From positions 1 through 12,909 of the forward strand of contig WAKA01000135.1 in NCBI GenBank assembly GCA_015523565.1: a stretch of DNA of 12,909 nucleotides, written 5' to 3'. This document shows, one piece after another, positions 3,096 to 11,863 of the stretch. The DNA is from Candidatus Heimdallarchaeota archaeon (GTDB lineage Archaea; Asgardarchaeota; Heimdallarchaeia; Heimdallarchaeales; Kariarchaeaceae). The notes under the pieces are model-generated. The model was not told the DNA's origin. It did not search any database and saw nothing but the letters and a program-made list of their open reading frames with translations. Each line of letters begins with the position of its first letter. The first letter of the stretch is position 1. A program made the position numbers and the translations under genes.

Positions 3096-5609
3096 ATGAA
3101 TAAACATTATACACGGCTATTGATTATCTTTTTCCTATTTGGACTATTTGTCTTTGGTCTAGGAAACTCTTCACCAATGAATATGGTAAATGAAAAGAAA
3201 CTGTTCGCAAGTAATGATTTAACCATCTACCCAAATGTCCCTCCAGATCTTTTGGACAGGGCAAGAACTGCAAATTTCATAAGGGAATCAAGGTATAGTC
3301 TCTCAAAAAACGCCACTTCCATTGATAAAATATTTTATAGAATTGGTGCCTTAAGACTTCTGGACCCTGACTTATCAAATCTCACACAATCACAAAAAGA
3401 TTATCTGATCTCGCAAATACTATCTTTTCAAAACACTAATTTTGGATTTGGAGATTGGTATAAAGACAGAAGTTCTGTAACTGGAACATACAAGGCTGTT
3501 CAAAGCCTAATTTGGCTTGGTTACAATGGGTTGAACACTGCAAATGTCAAACAATATTTGGATGCACTTTTGGTTCCATTGACAAATTCATTCAAAACTT
3601 ATCTGTCAGATAGTGACGGTGACCTTTATGCAACATCCATTGCAGTGTTGACATATTCATTACTTAATGAACCTGTTCCTTCTTCAACAAATGTTGCAGA
3701 TACATTGTTAAATGGTCAAAATTTAGACCCTTCATTTGTACCACCCCAAGAAATAGGAGGGTTTGGTCTTCAGACAAATTCTAAAAAATCAATCTATTGG
3801 ACATCTTCAGTGGTACTGACTTCTTATGCTTTGGAAGCATTGAATAAATTGGGGATGAATGCTAATGATACCAACAGTGCTATTTCATTCATCAAAAATC
3901 TACAATTAAGCAACGGAGGTTTTGTGGATGTCACAACACAAACATCATCGTCTGCATCATATTCTGCAAGGGCAATTGTTGGATTGAATCTATTAGGGTC
4001 ATCTCCAGTGGACACTGCCAAAGCCGCATCTTATCTTAAAGGACTTCAGTCATCAAATGGTGGCTATAGGTTAAAGGACACAAGTGTGGCTCCTTCATTG
4101 AAAGGAACATACTTTTCATTGTTGGGTCTTTCCTCTTTGAATGTTGTTCCTGCAAATATTACAGAAACAGTAAATTATCTTGTGAATTTGCCAGACATGG
4201 TTGATGGATATGGGGCAAATCCTGAAAGCGAACCAAATTTGAGAACTACATTTGACGGGGTGTATTCACTTGTCCTTATGAACAGAACAATTACAAATAA
4301 GCAGAGGTTACTCAATTATGTTGAAAGCTATAGAAATAATGACAATGGTTTCGGACTGACGGGTTCTTATGTTGAATCAACATTCAGAGCTGTAACAATC
4401 TATTCACTTCTAAACATGTCAATGCCTTCTGCATCTGGTGTAATTTCCTTCCTTCAAAGCTTACAACAACCAGATGGTGGCTTTTCAAAAACTCCTGGAA
4501 ATACAACCTCTTTTGTCATTTCAACCTATAGGGCCATTGTTGCCTTGAAATTATTGGGAGCTACACCAACAAATGTAAATGGTGCCATCTCATATCTTAA
4601 AAGTACACAGAACACTGACGGTGGTTTCGGAGGCTATGTTGGTGATATTAGTGACGTCAGTAGCACATATCGCGCTGTAAGAGCACTTTCACTTCTCAAT
4701 GATACATCCTTTGATGTCACTGCGGCAGTCAGTTTTCTTAAAAATTCCCAAAATCCTGACGGAGGTTTCAAACGAAGTTCTTATGACAATGCTCTCCCAA
4801 ACAATGTGTCTCATGCTATTTTTACTTATTCTGCTGTTCGAGCATTAATTATCTTGCGTTCTCTTCCAAACAACATTTCTGGGGTTTATTATTATCTTAA
4901 AAGCCTGAGAAACAATGACGGTGGATACGGAAAGCATCCAGATTTTACCTCTGATCTTGCATATACATTCTCATCATTGTATGTCCTTTCACTTCTGCCA
5001 GAAATAACAGGTTTCAAGGCAGTTCTGCCAGGAAATCTAGATTCACTAAGATCACAATACGATAACTTTTCAGTGACGATTTCCAGTGAATTGTACCCCA
5101 TGAATTATTCAATATCCATTGCAAATTCTTCAAGTGTGATTAATTCAGCAACTATTAATAACGCATCTGGGACTTTCGTGGTTGATACCTCTTCTTTCAC
5201 AAATGGTATGCATGTTATGAGGTTGACAGTAGTTGATGGATCGTTTGGAATGATCAATCAAACATTTAAGATATTGATCTCCAATGTTATTGTAACTTCT
5301 AGTACAAGCAATTCCAATACAACCAGCTCAACTGGTACGACATCAACAACTAATTCTTCTTCAATCACAACTAATTCCTCAACGACAACAACAAATTCGT
5401 CCACTGTAAATATAACATCCAATTCAACCTCTTCATCTTCAATCATTTCAACTAACGAGAATTCAACTCAATCGTCGACAACAATCAGTTCTCAACCGCC
5501 TCCACTCGAAACTGGAGGAAACAATACTCAATCTCTAATAATATTTGTTGCCGTAGGAGGTATTGCACTTGCGGTGATAGTGATCATTATATTCCGTTTG
5601 AAAAAATAA
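3096..5609 (+). CDS. Surface-anchored prenyltransferase/squalene-oxidase-repeat protein (12 repeats, probably two alpha/alpha barrels) + Ig-like domain + Ser/Thr linker + C-terminal TM
   Basis: Repeated YL/FLxxxQNxDGGF/Y...S/DxxSTYRAVxAL units (LQLSNGGF, LQSSNGGY, LQQPDGGF, TQNTDGGFG, SQNPDGGF, LRNNDGGYG) match the Prenyltrans (PF00432)/QW-type repeat. It also has a signal peptide and a C-terminal TM + RLKK. Confidence 0.88.
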   Translation: MNKHYTRLLIIFFLFGLFVFGLGNSSPMNMVNEKKLFASNDLTIYPNVPPDLLDRARTANFIRESRYSLSKNATSIDKIFYRIGALRLLDPDLSNLTQSQKDYLISQILSFQNTNFGFGDWYKDRSSVTGTYKAVQSLIWLGYNGLNTANVKQYLDALLVPLTNSFKTYLSDSDGDLYATSIAVLTYSLLNEPVPSSTNVADTLLNGQNLDPSFVPPQEIGGFGLQTNSKKSIYWTSSVVLTSYALEALNKLGMNANDTNSAISFIKNLQLSNGGFVDVTTQTSSSASYSARAIVGLNLLGSSPVDTAKAASYLKGLQSSNGGYRLKDTSVAPSLKGTYFSLLGLSSLNVVPANITETVNYLVNLPDMVDGYGANPESEPNLRTTFDGVYSLVLMNRTITNKQRLLNYVESYRNNDNGFGLTGSYVESTFRAVTIYSLLNMSMPSASGVISFLQSLQQPDGGFSKTPGNTTSFVISTYRAIVALKLLGATPTNVNGAISYLKSTQNTDGGFGGYVGDISDVSSTYRAVRALSLLNDTSFDVTAAVSFLKNSQNPDGGFKRSSYDNALPNNVSHAIFTYSAVRALIILRSLPNNISGVYYYLKSLRNNDGGYGKHPDFTSDLAYTFSSLYVLSLLPEITGFKAVLPGNLDSLRSQYDNFSVTISSELYPMNYSISIANSSSVINSATINNASGTFVVDTSSFTNGMHVMRLTVVDGSFGMINQTFKILISNVIVTSSTSNSNTTSSTGTTSTTNSSSITTNSSTTTTNSSTVNITSNSTSSSSIISTNENSTQSSTTISSQPPPLETGGNNTQSLIIFVAVGGIALAVIVIIIFRLKK
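5295..5492 (+). repeat. Low-complexity Ser/Thr/Asn linker with repeated TTNSS units
   Basis: TSSTSNSNTTSSTGTTSTTNSSSITTNSSTTTTNSSTVNITSNSTSSSS..., with seven N-x-S/T sequons in 66 codons. Confidence 0.85.
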
Positions 5610-5627: not shown

Positions 5628-8600
5628 ATGAGGTCTTTATTTCTTTTAATGTTCTTATTGTTCGTATCATTCATGGCTGATCCTATAACCAGCAAATCTG
5701 TGGCTATGAATTATTCTAAGACAAGCAATGACCAAGACCCAACTCCTCTTGATTTCATAAAATTATCTCAAGACGATGATTTTGATAACCTTAAATCGAT
5801 GGATATTGCTTATTATAAAATTAACACTCTTGAATACCTTCAACAGCTATTTAGTGTCGCGACCAATGAGACACTCAATAACTTTGAAGAAAAAGCATTG
5901 GATTTCATAATGTCCTCATTTTCAAATGGATCTTGGGCAAATTGGAAAGGGTCACGTCCATCAATGGAATCTACTTTTCAAGCACTTATATCCCTAAACC
6001 ATACCTCAAATATGAATCTAATTACTCAAAGTCAAGCCATTGAGATAATCAATTTCTTAAATTCATTAAAAAGACCAAATGGCGGATTCTTTCCCTTGCA
6101 AAATTGGGATGTCCCAGATGTATCCTCTACTTATCGTGCATTGGTTTTAGAAAGAATATTGAAAAGACATTTTCCAAATTTGCCAATTGAATTGAATAAA
6201 ACTGGTGTTGTTGATTTTGTTCGTTCCACATATAATGAACCTGTTTTCATTACTGGTGCTTCTGCCTATGGTGAAATTCAAGGTGGAAAACCAGAAATTC
6301 TTGCCTCTTTGTTTTCCTTGTATGTCCACATCTTCATGAACCAAACTGACCCACATGTAAGCAATGTCATTGCTTTGATAAATTCCTTCACCTCCCCAAA
6401 TGGAGGTGTTGCAGGGTATTCTGGTAGTTTAGTGCAGACTGGATACACGGCAAGAGCAATTGAATACTATCTTCTTGTAAAATCATATTATCCTGATCTA
6501 TTGCCTTTGTTCAATGAAAATTTCTTGGAAAATGCCGCCAATTATATCACATCAAATCAACTTTCCAATTCTGGTTTTGGTTCAAGTGAAACGGATAGGT
6601 CTGTGTCCATCTCAAGTACATTTTTCGCTATGAGGATTGCATTTCTCACAAGAAATGAAATAAATTTGAATATTGACCCTGTTGGTGTCTTAACTTATTT
6701 GCTCACTCCAAACCAGCCAACCTTTGGAATTGGTGACTTCCCAGGAAATGTTCCCTCCGTGGTTGAAACTGCTCGAGGAATTTTGACTGGAAAACTATTG
6801 GGAAATCTGGATTGGCTCCACCCAAAAACCATTGATTATATCACTGATACATTTTCCGAAAAGGAAGGGGGTTTCGGATTTCGTCCTCAGTCGAATCCCC
6901 GCATAAAATATACTTATTATGGCATTTTGGCATTAAGGGCATTAGGAAAAACAATTTCAAATCCCAAGGACATTGTTAATTTTATTCTTCAATCTGAGGT
7001 AGATACTGGTGGTTTTGGGCAAATTCCTGGAGCTCATTTCAGTTACCTGACACATACATATTGGGCATTGAAATCCCTAAATCTATTGGGACATTTCTAT
7101 CCTATCAAATTTAACAAAACAAAGCTAATAGAGTGGTTAAAGGGTCTTGAAAATCCCAAAACAGGGATGTACCGAAATTCTCAAACTGGAGAAGATTCAA
7201 TAATTTCAACTTTTCGAGCCGTTGAAATACTGAAGTTATTTGATGTTGCAATTAATTCCTCAAAGATTTTAAATTCAGTTCAGTCATATGCGGTTCCAAC
7301 AGGTGGATTTGTGAATAAACTAAGCAAAACAGTTCCAACAATGGAAGCAACATATTTTGCATTTCAATTGATTCATTCATTAAATGGATCAATTTCATCA
7401 CTATCCGTTTTCAAAAAATTTGTGGAATCGTTAAAAAATGCAGATGGCGGATATGGATCAAGGCTTGGATTTTCTTCTAGGGTAACTGCTACATTTTATG
7501 CAATATCATTGCTTAATCGTCTCAATTCAAGCGATAATGCATTCAATTTTGGTGAAGGGCTTGATAAGGATTTATTTGCCCCTCTAATTATCCAAAGCTT
7601 TGTGCCTTCAATAAATAATTATCAACAATTTTCTGGATCATACATTACTGAGGCTTCAATTCAAGATCCTGAAACACATGTAGATCAAGCATGGGTAGAG
7701 GCCACTTGGACAGATGGACAAATAAATAAAACATTTACATTTATTGGATATCAAACCAATAATTCCCTATGGAGATTTACTATAGGCTCTTTCAAAGATG
7801 AAGGAATTATTCAGTTCCAGATTGTCGCTAATGATACAAATGGAAACATAGGCAAAACTGACTTTTTCTACCTGAAGGTCAAATCCATTGCAACAGGATC
7901 ACAATACGTGCAAATAAACTTAATTCAATTCCTAATCAGAACCTTCATTCCTTTCCTAATGCTCGCGGTTGCCTTTGCTGATCTGATCTACTCAATCAAA
8001 AAACAATATTCCAAGGAGGTTATCAAAAAAATGTATAAACCATCAAAACAGTCTGAATGGACTGACCTAGAAATTTTCAATGGATTTCTATTGATCATAA
8101 CAATGATCGTAATTGCAGAAATTGCACGGCTTGTCCTAAAAGACACTCAATTCATTCTTCAAAACAGTCTTTTTCTATTTAGGTTCCTTTTGGCCATTCT
8201 CTTAGTGCTCTTTGCCAAATATTCTCTTGGTGTCCATACTTATGGATTATTTGCGCCAAGTGTTCTTGTCATCTCTATGATTCAAATTGGACCATTTTGG
8301 GGAACAATCCTGTTTTTCAACATTTTTACATTGCTTTATCTTGTTAGAATTTTAATTGAGCCGTATGCTTTTCCTGTTGGATTTAGAATTGGAATTATGA
8401 TGGTTTTCAACATTTCCTTTTTAGGACTTCTGGAAATGATTGGAGAAGTCTATCGTATCCCATTCCTAAGCACTGCAATATTTGTCCCCATCATTATCCT
8501 TCCGTGGATAACAGATAGGTATGTAAGCAATGTAATTCAAAATGATCATCTCTTTGCATTTTCGAGATTACTGTTTACCCTTGCAATTACATGGGGATCG

Positions 8601-9740
8601 TATTTCTTGATGAGCAATGATACAGTTGTTACATTTGTTACCCTTAATCCTGAAATTTGGATACTTCTCGTTGGAATTATTGTGTATTATGGACGGGGCA
8701 GGCGTTATACTATTTTAGATAAAAGAAGGTTCAGGAAACTTTTCAGTAAAAAAGAGGACCCCTTAAACATAATTGTCAGGAACCAGAATTACATTGCAAA
8801 ATACAACCCCCCTGAAATTTTCCCCCTAATGAATAAATTCGATATGAAACTTCAATTTGAAAAATGGAATGTACCTACTCCAACGATTTATGCGGTAATT
8901 TCTGAAATAAAGGACATTCGCCCTACTCTAAATTCTCTTGTCTCAAACCCAAGGTATTCAAACGGTTTTGTAGTTAAACCAACTCAAAGTTTAGGTGGAA
9001 TGGGCATCATTGTGATCACAAAGGTATTGCCTGATAGATCATTGCAAATAGGAAATGATCTTTATGACTATACTGCAATAGAAAAAGAAATGACGAAAAT
9101 CATCCAAGGCGAATATCTTTCCACCCAAACATCTTCAGAAAATGATATTATTCTAATAGAGGAAAGGATTGTACTTAATGAATTCTTCAAAAGAATCTCT
9201 GTCGGTCTTCCTGATATACGTGTAATTGTATTTAATGGCATTCCTGTTATGGCAATGACCAGACTTCCAACATCAGAAAGTGATGGCAAAGCAAATCTAA
9301 AACAAGGTGCTATCGGTGCAGGTATCGATATGGAAACTGGTGAGATTTTTCATGCAGAATGGAAACAACATGAAGTAAAAATTCACCCAGATACAAAACA
9401 GCCAATTCTGGGCATCAAAATTCCACAATGGAAAGAAGTCTTGGCAATTGCATCCTTGGCACAAAGAAGTAGTGGTCTAGGATATGCAGGTGTTGATTTG
9501 GTTATGGGAACTGTTGGCAACCAATCAAAAATTTTCGTTTTGGAAATCAATAAAAGACCAGGACTTGAAATTCAGAATATCAATCAATCAAGTCTCTTGA
9601 ATAGACTCGACTTTATTGAAAAGCAAAAAATGAATTTTACAAATAGATCTCCTCTTGCCTCTGCAAATATGGCAATCAAATTGGGGAAGGTTTGGAAAAA
9701 ACAAAACTGGGAAAAATCCTTCAAGGAGGAAATGACATGA
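5628..9740 (+). CDS. Multidomain fusion: signal peptide + 12 prenyltransferase-type repeats + Ig-like domain + multi-pass 7TM_transglut-type membrane domain + alpha-L-glutamate-ligase-like (RimK-related, ATPgrasp_ST/TIGR02291-type) ATP-grasp domain
   Basis: Repeats at ~5790-7530 (LKRPNGGF, EKEGGFG, DTGGFG, LKNADGGYG). Membrane-domain motifs are GVHTYGLFAP (8229), PIIILPWITDR and NPEIW...GRGRRYTILDKRRF (8646-8732). ATP-grasp motifs are RNQNYIAKYNP, FVVKPTQSLGGMGI (8967), GLPDIRVIVFNGIPVMAMTRLPTSESDGKANLKQGA, HPDT, GLGYAGVD and LEINKRPGLEIQ (9540). Confidence 0.9.
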   Translation: MRSLFLLMFLLFVSFMADPITSKSVAMNYSKTSNDQDPTPLDFIKLSQDDDFDNLKSMDIAYYKINTLEYLQQLFSVATNETLNNFEEKALDFIMSSFSNGSWANWKGSRPSMESTFQALISLNHTSNMNLITQSQAIEIINFLNSLKRPNGGFFPLQNWDVPDVSSTYRALVLERILKRHFPNLPIELNKTGVVDFVRSTYNEPVFITGASAYGEIQGGKPEILASLFSLYVHIFMNQTDPHVSNVIALINSFTSPNGGVAGYSGSLVQTGYTARAIEYYLLVKSYYPDLLPLFNENFLENAANYITSNQLSNSGFGSSETDRSVSISSTFFAMRIAFLTRNEINLNIDPVGVLTYLLTPNQPTFGIGDFPGNVPSVVETARGILTGKLLGNLDWLHPKTIDYITDTFSEKEGGFGFRPQSNPRIKYTYYGILALRALGKTISNPKDIVNFILQSEVDTGGFGQIPGAHFSYLTHTYWALKSLNLLGHFYPIKFNKTKLIEWLKGLENPKTGMYRNSQTGEDSIISTFRAVEILKLFDVAINSSKILNSVQSYAVPTGGFVNKLSKTVPTMEATYFAFQLIHSLNGSISSLSVFKKFVESLKNADGGYGSRLGFSSRVTATFYAISLLNRLNSSDNAFNFGEGLDKDLFAPLIIQSFVPSINNYQQFSGSYITEASIQDPETHVDQAWVEATWTDGQINKTFTFIGYQTNNSLWRFTIGSFKDEGIIQFQIVANDTNGNIGKTDFFYLKVKSIATGSQYVQINLIQFLIRTFIPFLMLAVAFADLIYSIKKQYSKEVIKKMYKPSKQSEWTDLEIFNGFLLIITMIVIAEIARLVLKDTQFILQNSLFLFRFLLAILLVLFAKYSLGVHTYGLFAPSVLVISMIQIGPFWGTILFFNIFTLLYLVRILIEPYAFPVGFRIGIMMVFNISFLGLLEMIGEVYRIPFLSTAIFVPIIILPWITDRYVSNVIQNDHLFAFSRLLFTLAITWGSYFLMSNDTVVTFVTLNPEIWILLVGIIVYYGRGRRYTILDKRRFRKLFSKKEDPLNIIVRNQNYIAKYNPPEIFPLMNKFDMKLQFEKWNVPTPTIYAVISEIKDIRPTLNSLVSNPRYSNGFVVKPTQSLGGMGIIVITKVLPDRSLQIGNDLYDYTAIEKEMTKIIQGEYLSTQTSSENDIILIEERIVLNEFFKRISVGLPDIRVIVFNGIPVMAMTRLPTSESDGKANLKQGAIGAGIDMETGEIFHAEWKQHEVKIHPDTKQPILGIKIPQWKEVLAIASLAQRSSGLGYAGVDLVMGTVGNQSKIFVLEINKRPGLEIQNINQSSLLNRLDFIEKQKMNFTNRSPLASANMAIKLGKVWKKQNWEKSFKEEMT
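9724..9729 (+). promoter_or_regulatory. Shine-Dalgarno sequence for the transglutaminase gene
   Basis: AGGAGG lies 7 nt upstream of ATG 9737, which overlaps the upstream stop (ATGA, 9737-9740). Confidence 0.75.
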
Positions 9741-10888
9741 CGAACGAGGTCAACAATGCCACTGTTAAACTATTGGCTATTCTTCTGGTGGTGTCAATAA
9801 TTTTCGGCACATTTGTTTTCTTGTATACCGAAGAAAATAATGAAATACTTAAGGGAGAAGCTAATTTTCAACTTCATTACATCTATACCCTGAAAAATGA
9901 AGGTCCCCTAAATCTGAGCTTTGTATCTTTGAGACTTGCTCTCCTTAAATCTTGGGAACCTGTACAAAGAGTGGACAGTATCAGTTATGCACCAATGGCT
10001 AACCGAACAGCATCAGACCAATACAACAATTCATTTATTTATTATGAATTTGACTTTTTTGGGGTCAATCAGACTCTTCAGGTTGAAGTTTATGCAAATC
10101 TTACTCTTTACCTGCTTGATTATGCAAATGCAAAATTGACGATATATCCTTATGACCCTAATGATAGGCTTTATGCCCTATTTCTTGCATATGATCAATA
10201 TGCAGATACAACAGATCCTGCCGTTAGATCTATTGCTAATTCATTTCCTGTCACAAATAATCCAATTGAAGATGCATATTATGCATATAATTTTTCTTCG
10301 ACTTTTATAAAATATAAACTTCTAAGTAAAGTGAAAGGGGCAAGTTTCGCAATTAGAAATGGCTATGGGGATTGTGACGAATATACGACCCTGTTCATGG
10401 CTTTAACTAGGGCTCGTGGGATACCTTCAATTGAACATTCGGCATGGCTTGGTGATTTCGTTGAAGGATACAATGGAACAGACAATGGTGCTGCGGCACA
10501 TGCCTATCCTATGTTTTATGTGAATGGAATTGGTATGCTTCCGGCAGATCCAACAAGAGGAAATACCAATTTCTTTGAGAACTGGCTGAAAACAGATGAA
10601 AAAAGAATTACCTTGACAAGAGGTCCAGATAAACCATATCGCCACCTGACTTATAGATGGATACCAAAGGAAAATATTTCTGACCCCCAAATATTCTCTG
10701 AATATCGAATTTTTATTGATAAGCTAAATATCAATTATTTTTCAAGAATCAGAACTACAATTTTTGTTATACTAACCGCTATGCCTGTAGTTTTTGTTGG
10801 ATATTCTGCTATTGCAGGTAGAAGGGCATACAAATTGAAACAAGAAAAAGTCAAAAAAATCCTCATGGATCATCTTACTGATAACTAA
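9737..10888 (+). CDS. Membrane-anchored transglutaminase-like (Transglut_core) enzyme with intact catalytic triad, 383 aa
   Basis: GDCDEYTTLFMALTRARGIP (Cys 10373), HAYP (His 10499) and ADPT (Asp 10547). There are TM helices at both ends and many N-x-S/T sequons. I revised the start from 9692 to ATG 9737 on the basis of the SD and the ATGA overlap. Confidence 0.9.
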   Translation: MTNEVNNATVKLLAILLVVSIIFGTFVFLYTEENNEILKGEANFQLHYIYTLKNEGPLNLSFVSLRLALLKSWEPVQRVDSISYAPMANRTASDQYNNSFIYYEFDFFGVNQTLQVEVYANLTLYLLDYANAKLTIYPYDPNDRLYALFLAYDQYADTTDPAVRSIANSFPVTNNPIEDAYYAYNFSSTFIKYKLLSKVKGASFAIRNGYGDCDEYTTLFMALTRARGIPSIEHSAWLGDFVEGYNGTDNGAAAHAYPMFYVNGIGMLPADPTRGNTNFFENWLKTDEKRITLTRGPDKPYRHLTYRWIPKENISDPQIFSEYRIFIDKLNINYFSRIRTTIFVILTAMPVVFVGYSAIAGRRAYKLKQEKVKKILMDHLTDN

Positions 10889-10945: not shown

Positions 10946-11863
10946 ATGATTTCTCTTGAAGACCGTGTCAGAGGATATATATTCGGTTCTGCAATTGGTG
11001 ATGCATTCGGTAGGGCTGTTGAATTTGATTCCTATAAGCAAATTCTCTCTAAATATGGCGAAAATGGTATTGTTGACCTTATCACAGACGATTGGACTGA
11101 TGACACACAAATGATGCTTGCAATCGGAAACGCATTATTGAAAACCCACGATAAAAATGAAACGGCTATACTAGACTCCATTGCAGAAAATTTCATCAAA
11201 TGGATGGATGACCCTGGCTATGCACCTGGTTCGACATGCATGAGTGGATGTGCAAACCTAAAATCAGGAATTCATTGGAGTAAATCTGGTATTCCTTGGT
11301 CAAAAGGATGTGGAAGCGTTATGAGGTCTGGTGTAATCGGTTTTTTCTTTAGGAATGATATGGACAAACTCAAATCAATAGCATCAAAATCAGGATTGAT
11401 GACTCATGCCCATCCAACAGCAGATGCGGCATGTATTGCAGGTGCATTGTCCATCAATTATGCACTTAAGGGATTGAAGACCCCTCAAATTTATGAAAAA
11501 GTCAGATCCGAAACATTAGGGATTTCTCAGGAATTTACAGACAAAATTGATCAGATGGCACGTATTGCCCAATCTCAAACACCAAATCGTGAAGGGATTA
11601 TTTCTCTTGGACAAGGGTGGGTTGCAGACGAAGCCTATGCAATGGCTCTTTACTCGCTTTGGCGAACAAACAATTACCAAGATTTGGTGGTTCTTGCGTC
11701 AAATCATGATGGTGATTCCGATAGTGTTGCTTGTATTGCAGGTGGGATTTTTGGAGCAATGAATGGCATTTCATCAATCCCACAAGAATGGATCGACAGG
11801 CTGGTGAAAAAAAACATTCTTGCAAATTTTGCAGATATGGTTATTGAGGCTATCAAACAATGA
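10946..11863 (+). CDS. ADP-ribosylglycohydrolase family protein (DraG/ARH-like)
   Basis: GSAIGDAFGRAVEF, WTDDTQM, GCGSVMR, THAHP and DGDSDSVACIAG are the canonical motifs, with the metal-binding acidic residues intact. 305 aa. Confidence 0.93.
   Translation: MISLEDRVRGYIFGSAIGDAFGRAVEFDSYKQILSKYGENGIVDLITDDWTDDTQMMLAIGNALLKTHDKNETAILDSIAENFIKWMDDPGYAPGSTCMSGCANLKSGIHWSKSGIPWSKGCGSVMRSGVIGFFFRNDMDKLKSIASKSGLMTHAHPTADAACIAGALSINYALKGLKTPQIYEKVRSETLGISQEFTDKIDQMARIAQSQTPNREGIISLGQGWVADEAYAMALYSLWRTNNYQDLVVLASNHDGDSDSVACIAGGIFGAMNGISSIPQEWIDRLVKKNILANFADMVIEAIKQ

Follow-up and report, generated by a model that had tools for sequence, protein, structure and literature searches.

A conserved Asgard fusion of prenyltransferase-like barrels, a 7TM domain and an ATP-grasp ligase as the core of an archaeal version of the Rlo cell-envelope system

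Introduction

The closest studied system to the locus described here is RloB/RloC of Pseudomonas. RloB carries a 7TM membrane domain preceded by an inactive transglutaminase domain, and RloC is an ATP-grasp ligase. In the Pseudomonas aeruginosa rloABC operon, deletion of rloB or rloC compensates for the absence of the secreted RloA proteases (PMC12239564); hence one and the same process is acted on by a ligase in the cytoplasm and a protease in the periplasm. The Rlo genetics are equally compatible with a receptor model.

The Asgard protein studied here has in common with RloB/RloC the PF14402 7TM domain, a cytoplasmic ligase of the ATPgrasp_ST/TIGR02291-like type (PF14397) and an envelope-related role, and its operon, like rloABC, encodes a module with the transglutaminase fold as well as an enzyme acting on peptide bonds outside (PMC12239564). 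By sequence, its membrane and ligase parts are homologous to RloB and RloC, respectively. In the bacterial loci examined the 7TM protein and the ATP-grasp ligase are encoded by adjacent separate genes, in line with the preliminary description of this DNA, whereas in the Asgard protein they form a single polypeptide. Its N-terminus consists of two PF00432 barrels and not of an inactive transglutaminase domain of the RloB type; the Asgard transglutaminase is separate, doubly anchored and has an intact Cys-His-Asp triad. Moreover, the Asgard cassette adds two prenyltransferase-like barrel proteins, one of them fused, and a search of this genome (90% complete) for the retropepsin (RloA/RimB-like, PF05618) found none. 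The fusion forms the core of a hitherto undescribed archaeal counterpart of the bacterial Rlo cell-envelope system.

In PgsBCA/CapD poly-gamma-glutamate synthesis and in Dlt D-alanylation, a ligase in the cytoplasm works together with a membrane component, and a further enzyme on the outside anchors or trims the product. PgsB has the Mur-ligase fold and does not belong to the ATP-grasp enzymes. The Asgard cassette resembles these systems in logic (ATP-dependent ligation inside, then the membrane, then an outside enzyme), which is a functional analogy only: no homology was detected, and at the level of sequence profiles the membrane domain of the fusion matches no Pfam family besides PF14402 at E<=10, including none of the CapC type.

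Results

The window, that is, the whole analysed stretch of 12,909 nucleotides from a Candidatus Heimdallarchaeota archaeon, contains an operon in the order barrel paralogue (gene 1), fusion, transglutaminase-like gene (gene 3). Its features are as follows.

3096..5609, + strand: gene 1, type-I anchored surface protein, 837 aa (PF00432, E 1.6e-55)
5628..5696, + strand: signal-peptide-like N-terminus of the fusion, MRSLFLLMFLLFVSFMA followed by D (hydropathy peak at residues 1-23; sequence)
5745..6647, + strand: extracellular alpha/alpha toroid barrel 1, residues ~40-340 (AF2 pLDDT 89.8; PF00432 repeats)
6678..7526, + strand: extracellular alpha/alpha toroid barrel 2, residues ~351-633 (AF2; Foldseek; profile match; Pfam)
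7584..7883, + strand: membrane-proximal all-beta domain (Ig-like sandwich), residues ~653-752 (AF2 strands E630-728)
7920..8012, + strand: TM1, residues 765-795, out to in (AF2 helix 21-51 of model mab956151d212; hydropathy)
8013..8060, + strand: cytoplasmic Lys-rich loop with the fusion junction (sequence; pLDDT <50)
8061..8699, + strand: TM2 and the 7TM_transglut core (TM3-TM9), residues 812-1024 (PF14402; AF2 helices; alignment A5)
8700..8756, + strand: juxtamembrane basic segment RGRRYTILDKRRFRKLFSKK (sequence; alignments)
8757..9659, + strand: predicted cytoplasmic RimK/LysX-like ATP-grasp amidoligase, residues 1044-1344 (PF14397; TIGR02291; structure matches)
9723..9740, + strand: coupling site, AAGGAGG (9723-9729) and the next-gene ATG (9737-9739) overlapping the fusion TGA (9738-9740)
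9737..10888, + strand: gene 3, doubly anchored extracellular transglutaminase-like enzyme, 383 aa (PF01841)

The fusion is encoded by one stop-free ORF (5628..9740, + strand, 1370 aa) and, as had been described, all three modules lie in it uninterrupted: a signal peptide, two prenyltransferase-like alpha/alpha barrels and a beta-sandwich are followed by nine TM helices and a RimK/LysX-like ATP-grasp domain. Prenyltrans (PF00432) matches three stretches above the gathering score with E 6.8e-37, the best being residues 472-635. 7TM_transglut (PF14402) matches residues 854-1038 with 40.6 bits (cut-off 25), or 46.4 bits when residues 800-1045 are taken alone, and ATPgrasp_ST (PF14397) matches residues 1051-1331 with 191.8 bits (cut-off 31.4). 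The only copies of PF14402 and PF14397 in the genome are those of this fusion. AF2 models of residues 24-760 (m4a6e2eea6e65, pLDDT 89.8; two alpha/alpha toroids and the beta-sandwich) and 745-1370 (mab956151d212, pLDDT 80.8; nine helices and the ATP-grasp) match the module layout derived from Pfam. The same three Pfam families are carried together by at least 26 full-length orthologues (1339–1509 aa, 38–55% identity) from independent Asgard assemblies, and at the DNA level the fused ORF is present in 14 distinct loci from independent projects. The fusion is a real protein that has been conserved in Asgard archaea of the Heimdall, Thor and Odin types.

One barrel superimposes on RabGGTase beta in Foldseek with a TM-score of 0.71–0.73 (target-normalised) and rmsd of ~2.0 Å over ~268 columns. 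Barrel 2 matches the GGTase-II beta profile with E 6e-20 (profile positions 478-630 of alignment A3). The beta-sandwich has no Pfam match at E<=10. The barrels share the alpha/alpha toroid of PF00432 repeats with protein prenyltransferase beta subunits and class II terpene cyclases, but they are extracellular, Cys-free and have no zinc site; the two-barrel arrangement is reminiscent of squalene-hopene cyclase, but the match is poor (rmsd 12–13 Å). Since the 1370 residues of the fusion include zero Cys, the Asp/Cys/His zinc site of protein prenyltransferases is impossible in it. The ectodomains of the orthologues are likewise almost without Cys, and no DxDD-type motif is invariant in their conserved-column list. 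The barrels are best read as a non-catalytic, putative binding module, and their earlier assignment as the extracellular module of the fusion stands.

An N-out/C-in topology, with the barrels outside and the ligase inside, is supported by hydropathy, the positive-inside rule (basic loops), AF2 helices and comparison of homologues. The segment from TM2 to TM9 has both ends cytoplasmic, and directly behind the last helix lies the basic stretch GRGRRYTILDKRRFRKLFSKK (residues 1022-1042), from which the ATP-grasp had already been placed inside. R1034 and F1035 of the juxtamembrane segment are invariant in archaeal and bacterial forms, and the family-wide conserved motifs cluster at the cytoplasmic face and in this segment. 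Stand-alone 7TM-ligase forms have a basic N-terminus followed by an equivalent of TM2; bacterial transglutaminase-fused forms have no TM2 (alignment A5).

The ATP-grasp domain has the features of the RimK type: the fold, a conserved Lys, a Gly-rich loop and an Asp/Glu/Asn Mg site. K1117, G1123-G1126, E1178, R1198, D1290, E1306 and N1308 are invariant in the orthologues, and D1290/E1306/N1308 align with the Mg-site motif of RimK. ArgX (Z 16.9), RimK (Z 16.0) and LysX are among the closest structures, and the top Foldseek match is RimK 5zct. With the ATP/Mg residues intact and RimK and ArgX as structural matches, the ligase is predicted to be active. Curated family cut-offs were not reached for rimK_rel_E_lig (TIGR02291, 231 bits vs 314.2), rimK_fam (TIGR00768, 20.7 bits vs 143.4) and NCBIfam RloB (NF052267, 20.5 bits vs 900); judged by these profiles, the fusion is related to the RloB and rimK_rel_E_lig models, yet is no equivalog. 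Compared with the RimK, LysX and ArgX ligases, the domain is alike in fold (Z 16–17) and in the conserved ATP/Mg motifs, but scores below the family cut-offs and is membrane-tethered.

The gene 1 product comprises a signal peptide, two prenyltransferase-like barrels, a beta-sandwich, a Ser/Thr-rich stalk, a C-terminal TM helix and a basic tail (TM segments at residues 4-28 and 810-837). It is 26% identical to residues 42-632 of the fusion and is, by this comparison, a paralogue of the fusion ectodomain. A gene 1 homologue lies 5' of the fusion in 14/14 fused loci, and the transglutaminase-like gene is always immediately 3' of it; the three-gene operon is conserved, and the flanking genes vary between loci. 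An ATGA start/stop overlap joins the fusion and the transglutaminase-like gene, which are predicted to be translationally coupled. Gene 3 matches PF01841 with 32.5 bits (cut-off 23), and its triad Cys213-His255-Asp271 is invariant in 13 orthologues and in all fused-clade loci. In the cassettes of Thermoplasmatota, Promethearchaeota and Thaumarchaeota the nucleophile is Ser (Ala once), and hence outside catalysis is perhaps not universal. A retropepsin gene lies behind the cassette of one unfused relative (L011).

Unfused cassettes, with separate barrel, 7TM-ATP-grasp and transglutaminase genes, are found in Thermoplasmatota and Promethearchaeota and in a small number of Asgard genomes. All unfused barrel proteins are type-I anchored, and every one ends with an anchor helix and a basic tail. 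TM1 of the fusion is probably the onetime C-terminal anchor of such a protein. Given this separate anchor, followed by a cytoplasmic loop and the extra TM2 before the 7TM core, a type-I barrel gene has probably been joined, at the part encoding the cytoplasmic tail after the anchor helix, to the 5' end of a gene for the membrane domain and ATP-grasp. The latter gene would have encoded a membrane domain of eight helices (the 7TM core and the extra helix before it) continuous with the ATP-grasp. The junction lies where the split genes have their stop and start. In the tree, rooted at the midpoint only, support for the two-barrel clade is 100/100; every basal branch within it is fused, and the clean splits L005 and L012 are nested inside the clade. 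From topology and phylogeny, we infer that a barrel gene was fused onto a pre-existing 7TM-ligase gene.

These data change the earlier picture in three respects. The barrels do not replace the transglutaminase of the bacterial proteins: a triad-bearing transglutaminase-like gene always comes next to the fusion and is coupled to it, and unfused versions of the cassette exist. Nor is their attachment point on the 7TM core the one occupied by the transglutaminase in bacteria: the barrels have brought an anchor of their own (TM1), and a cytoplasmic loop and TM2 come before the core. The joining of 7TM and ATP-grasp in one protein is common, being found in 36 of the best 150 representative clusters. 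The outside part of 7TM-ATP-grasp proteins is a transglutaminase, a retropepsin, a subtilase or nothing; throughout the 7TM-ligase family the outside partners act on peptide bonds (transglutaminase-like enzymes, retropepsins or subtilases).

In the junction loop, AAGGAGGT (8013-8020) lies ahead of the ATG codon of Met802 (8031, in frame), from which translation may start internally to give a 7TM-ATP-grasp isoform of 569 aa. The equivalent site is Met in 25/27 fused orthologues, compared to ~2% Met overall, a count that overstates the independent support, as the Met is shared among kin. A Shine-Dalgarno-like motif is found 5' of this Met in several orthologues, and the split gene in L005 begins exactly at this site. 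The retention of the old start Met suggests that M802, with the motif ahead of it, probably still yields a barrel-less second isoform.

Discussion

The best overall explanation, to which we assign a probability of roughly 0.6, combines a conserved Asgard fusion and operon, an origin by fusion of a barrel gene, and a mechanism of ligation, export and outside processing. Taken on its own, the mechanism has slightly less than an even chance of being correct. The ligase would sit where the 7TM domain opens to the cytoplasm and, using ATP, would join one or more amino acids, Glu-like as judged by family resemblance, to a carboxylate acceptor. The product would then reach the outer face by way of the 7TM domain, either through it or alongside it, and there the barrels would hold it and the transglutaminase-like enzyme would trim it or cross-link it to envelope components.

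We favour such a synthase-exporter over a receptor-like enzyme, in which the barrels and/or the transglutaminase-like partner would sense an outside ligand or the envelope state and the 7TM domain would switch the ligase, whose substrate and product would remain cytoplasmic. The layout of the fusion is similar to that of 7TM receptors, with an outside binding domain, a 7TM domain and an inside enzyme. Barrels devoid of catalytic residues and the gathering of conserved motifs at the cytoplasmic face and juxtamembrane segment fit a receptor, and the Rlo epistasis would also be explained if the proteases inactivate an RloB sensor (PMC12239564). However, an ATP-grasp as receptor output would be unprecedented, any sensor domain is missing from the stand-alone 7TM-ligase forms and from the putative M802 isoform, and a peptide substrate on the outside would be the simpler explanation for the repeated recruitment of transglutaminase, retropepsin and subtilase. 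We regard sensing without export as unlikely.

Somewhat less likely still is a membrane-tethered protein modifier, which would lengthen a cytoplasmic or membrane protein at its C-terminus or on a side chain, with the 7TM domain only localising or scaffolding the ligase beside the barrel and transglutaminase proteins. RimK modifies RpsF in this manner, LysX and ArgX modify LysW, and these C-terminus modifiers are the closest structures. But the cytoplasmic tails of the partners are basic, not conserved and do not end in Glu, the cassette has no LysW-like carrier gene, and the strict linkage to outside enzymes would be left unexplained.

It is very improbable that the barrels are active prenyltransferases or terpene cyclases that use isoprenoid lipids as substrates at the outer face of the membrane, and that the ligase serves this reaction. 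The PF00432 repeats, the RabGGTase-beta-like fold and the isoprenoid basis of archaeal membranes speak for it; the Cys-free barrels, the nearly Cys-free orthologue ectodomains and the lack of an invariant DxDD-type motif speak against it, and prenyl diphosphates are not expected outside the cell. Weakest is the possibility that errors of assembly or sequencing created the single ORF, or that two genes are only seemingly fused: the stops exactly at the junction in L005 and L012 and one assembly (P0224) reading through into the transglutaminase gene indicate a gene structure changeable by single-base differences, but the frame stays open across both junctions in 26 orthologues at 38–55% identity and in 14 DNA loci, which effectively refutes it.

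Returning to the synthase-exporter, the cassette could, as a speculative and rather unlikely extension, be an archaeal envelope-building machine, where the membrane-embedded ATP-grasp makes and exports a peptide or peptide-modified precursor and the outside transglutaminase forms covalent cross-links between it and the barrel proteins or the surface layer. If so, wall-less Asgard and Thermoplasmatota cells would bear a cross-linked peptide coat, and the M802 internal start would determine how much of the synthase carries barrels and how much is bare. The archaeal cassettes are natural "Rosetta-stone" fusions: by linking barrel, 7TM domain and ligase with a transglutaminase that appears to be active, they reveal parts that act as one machine and the membrane side of each. 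The retained M802 start offers a testable case of one gene for fused and unfused forms. The Asgard envelope is barely characterised and is relevant to eukaryogenesis; the cassette is a candidate surface-modifying system and provides a concrete set of proteins for expression and assay.

Domain composition and conservation of the operon

The genes of the studied region are as follows.

387–2375, +, Ile-rich protein of 662 aa without a Pfam family, with a long Ile/Val-rich tract, a (PV)n stretch, a signal-like N-terminus and a C-terminal anchor
3096–5609, +, gene 1, barrel paralogue, 837 aa in the window
5628–9740, +, fusion protein P0001, uninterrupted ORF, 1370 aa
9737–10888, +, gene 3, transglutaminase-like protein with TM helices at both ends
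10946–11863, +, ADP-ribosylglycohydrolase (PF03747, E 1.4e-69), starting 57 nt past gene 3

Three Pfam families match P0001 above their gathering scores: Prenyltrans (PF00432) in three stretches with E 6.8e-37, 7TM_transglut (PF14402) at residues 854–1038 with 40.6 bits against the cut-off of 25, and ATPgrasp_ST (PF14397) at residues 1051–1331 with 191.8 bits. Among NCBIfam models, TIGR02291 (alpha-L-glutamate ligase-like) reaches 231 bits and so stays short of its cut-off of 314, and the RloB model gives only a trace. The basic segment GRGRRYTILDKRRFRKLFSKK occupies residues 1022–1042, directly C-terminal to the last helix. Thus the preliminary description, which had placed all three modules in one ORF, was correct in its coordinates.

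Using a word-indexed search, 26 full-length orthologues were identified (38–55% identity, 1339–1509 aa). All of them contain PF00432, PF14402 and PF14397, their database names are generic, and the named sources are Odin-, Thor- and Heimdallarchaeota. As the same fused ORF is found in many independent assemblies, the earlier concern that it could be an assembly or sequencing artefact was dismissed; the chance of this is negligible. The distribution of the family is patchy (19 of 400 genomes and 12 of 85 genera of the phylum).

In all examined loci the gene order is constant and the flanking genes vary: the barrel paralogue (760–830 aa), the fusion, and the transglutaminase-like protein (about 375 aa). 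In the window, the ATG of gene 3 overlaps the TGA stop of the fusion (ATGA) and is preceded by AAGGAGG. The Cys-His-Asp triad of the gene 3 product is invariant in 13 orthologues. Both the Ile-rich protein and the ADP-ribosylglycohydrolase were rejected as parts of the system, given that they are not neighbours of the cassette in other loci.

The complex of residues 760–1045 with the transglutaminase was predicted with ipSAE 0.53 in three runs (0.00 for the best of three controls), partner pLDDT of at least 83 and contact agreement between runs of at least 93%. Of 80 solved complexes, 58 reach the mark used for such predictions, as do two of 110 mismatched pairs; only seven of the 80, but both mismatched pairs, reach it at scores of 0.60 or lower. 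The prediction was graded as weak support and is not counted as evidence here.

Structure and topology of the fusion protein

AF2 models were built for residues 24–760 (on the 26 orthologues; pLDDT 89.8, pTM 0.88) and for residues 745–1370 (pLDDT 80.8), the latter comprising nine helices followed by the ATP-grasp domain. The predicted elements are the following.

Residues about 40–340, alpha/alpha toroid 1
Residues about 351–633, alpha/alpha toroid 2
Residues about 653–752, all-beta sandwich, C-terminal to the toroids
Residues 765–795, 812–846, 848–867, 875–887, 889–913, 917–937, 947–971, 974–996 and 998–1024, helices

One barrel of P0001 was matched by Foldseek to RabGGTase beta (target-normalised TM-score 0.71–0.73, rmsd about 2 Å), in agreement with a profile search of PDB sequences. 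Cysteines are absent from both the 1370-aa fusion and the 837-aa paralogue, and orthologous ectodomains have 0–5 of them. A protein without Cys cannot form the Asp/Cys/His zinc site of prenyltransferases; hence the reading of the barrels as catalytic prenyltransferases was rejected, catalysis by them being very improbable, and we read their sequences as those of binding modules rather than enzymes.

From the signal-peptide-like N-terminus, the Lys-rich loop past TM1, the Arg/Lys-rich segment past TM9 and the nine predicted helices, we infer that the protein crosses the membrane nine times, its N-terminus lying outside and its C-terminus inside. The earlier argument that the basic segment past the last helix places the ATP-grasp inside fits this topology. 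In stand-alone 7TM-ATP-grasp proteins a basic N-terminus precedes a helix equivalent to TM2, whereas in bacterial transglutaminase-7TM-ATP-grasp proteins this helix is missing and the chain reaches the 7TM core from the outer side. By this comparison TM1 of P0001 would be an anchor helix and TM2 an additional helix ahead of the 7TM core, and the ATP-grasp is probably cytoplasmic in all three forms. N-glycosylation sequons number 13 in the ectodomain and 4 in the ligase, a density difference too weak to be used for topology. Fold searches with the 745–1370 model are dominated by the ATP-grasp and say nothing on the 7TM fold. Likeness of the membrane domain to CapC/PgsC has no Pfam support at E≤10 and was set aside as analogy only.

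For the ligase, a PDB search with the single sequence gave no match at E≤0.01, and a profile search gave only weak RimK matches; fold searches were needed for this domain. By structure it comes closest to ArgX (Z 16.9), RimK (Z 16.0) and LysX. Residues K1117, G1123–G1126, E1178, R1198, D1290, E1306 and N1308 are invariant in the 26 orthologues, and those of the D/E/N set correspond in alignment to the Mg-site motif of RimK; hence the ligase looks active.

Related proteins and unfused cassettes

The 7TM_transglut and ATPgrasp_ST-type domains were reportedly defined by Iyer et al. in 2009, as the content of that study is relayed by citing papers. An exhaustive HMMER search with residues 760–1370 yielded 1121 representative clusters; 36 of the best 150 have 7TM and ATP-grasp in one chain. 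Architectures in the Pfam-scanned examples include 7TM-ATP-grasp alone, (inactive) transglutaminase-7TM-ATP-grasp without or with TPR repeats, retropepsin-7TM-ATP-grasp, and 7TM-ATP-grasp-TM-subtilase. Proteins P0033, P0099, P0138 and P0166 represent the subtilase, retropepsin and long-TPR-tail forms, the last having 18 members in one cluster. Hence fusion of the 7TM domain to the ligase is common, and only the barrel fusion is special. The earlier statement that the ligase is usually a separate neighbouring gene holds for the bacterial loci, but not for these one-chain clusters. As to whether the architecture is already known, no description of the barrel-7TM-ligase protein or of the archaeal cassette was found in the searchable literature, coverage of which was partial.

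HMMs derived from our own alignments were run on 80 genome loci. Unfused cassettes (barrel, 7TM-ATP-grasp and transglutaminase genes) were found in Thermoplasmatota, one Promethearchaeota MAG, one Thaumarchaeota MAG (where the contig is cut, so that the barrel is not visible) and two further assemblies. All barrel-only proteins are type-I anchored: the signal peptide is followed by the ectodomain, then by a TM helix and a tail of basic residues. In the bacterial loci (Porticoccaceae and other Gammaproteobacteria, Patescibacteria, Kuenenia), the gene for an RloB-like protein of about 508 aa comes first and a separate ATP-grasp gene next. In the unfused locus L011, a RimB/RloA-like retropepsin gene (7433–7798) directly follows the transglutaminase gene and links the cassette to bacterial rloABC and rimBK logic. 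Many Thermoplasmatota genomes (L036–L081) encode, in addition, an ATPgrasp_ST-like protein of about 365 aa that stands alone, its gene having no 7TM gene beside it.

In the whole two-barrel Asgard clade and in L010, the nucleophile position of the transglutaminase is occupied by Cys. The single-barrel cassettes of Thermoplasmatota, Promethearchaeota and Thaumarchaeota (L026, L029, L031, L032, L006, L011, L030) have Ser in its place (GDSAE/GGSAE) and keep the His and Asp, and L034 has Ala.

Origin of the fusion

In the maximum-likelihood tree of the 7TM-ATP-grasp part, rooted at the midpoint only, all two-barrel cassettes form one clade (100/100), the basal branches of which are all fused. The clean splits, of which there are two (L005, from Heimdall TM2S.58, and L012), branch within this clade; two further apparently split rows are contig-end cuts. 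The sequences suggest that the second barrel gene fused once with the 7TM-ligase gene and that at least two fissions came later.

In L005 the barrel gene ends in a TGA that precedes the ATG of the 7TM-ligase gene by four bases, exactly at the position of the TM1-TM2 loop. In the window this loop carries AAGGAGGT at 8013–8020 and an in-frame ATG at 8031 (Met802). Met occupies the equivalent site in 25 of 27 orthologues, a count inflated by their relatedness, mostly 8–10 residues before the start of the 7TM model; the rest of the loop shows no conservation, and Met makes up about 2% of residues overall. An SD-like motif precedes this site in several orthologues. The old start is probably still in use, which would give a barrel-less isoform.

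Locus L009 (5575–10944, GCA_027016885.1) encodes barrel, 7TM, ATP-grasp and transglutaminase as a single ORF of 1789 aa (P0224). Contigs from other sources with at least 90% identity encode proteins of 1422 and 386 aa instead, and for P0224 the choice is between a genuine fusion of four parts and an error of one base.

Possible function of the cassette

Among the systems that have been studied, rloABC of Pseudomonas aeruginosa is the closest. There RloB combines an inactive transglutaminase with the 7TM domain, RloC is a cytoplasmic ATP-grasp and the RloA proteins are retropepsins that are secreted; without these proteases the cells die under hypo-osmotic conditions, and deletion of rloB or rloC rescues them (PMC12239564). 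In Shewanella, mutation of the homologous 7TM protein leads to excess formation of membrane vesicles (PMC12096838). The archaeal cassette shares with the Rlo system the two core domains, 7TM_transglut and ATP-grasp, whereas the window cassette has neither the fused inactive transglutaminase nor the retropepsin partner and stays below the RloB model cut-off.

The preliminary description left the choice between a synthase-exporter and a receptor-like enzyme with a ligase controlled by an outside ligand. We tentatively favour the synthase-exporter (probability about 0.45), since the one enzyme of the family that forms bonds lies in the cytoplasm, and the partners that recur on the outside are peptide-bond enzymes. 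The receptor-like regulated ligase is its rival and appears unlikely; a membrane-tethered protein modifier seems quite improbable. Under the synthase-exporter model, ligation would take place where the 7TM domain opens to the cytoplasm, its product would pass to the outer face and be captured there by the barrels, and the Cys-His-Asp transglutaminase-like enzyme would trim or cross-link it. For methanogens, an independent proposal is that extracellular transglutaminases cross-link pseudomurein (PMC11915815), which makes a role of the cassette in cross-linking the cell envelope plausible.
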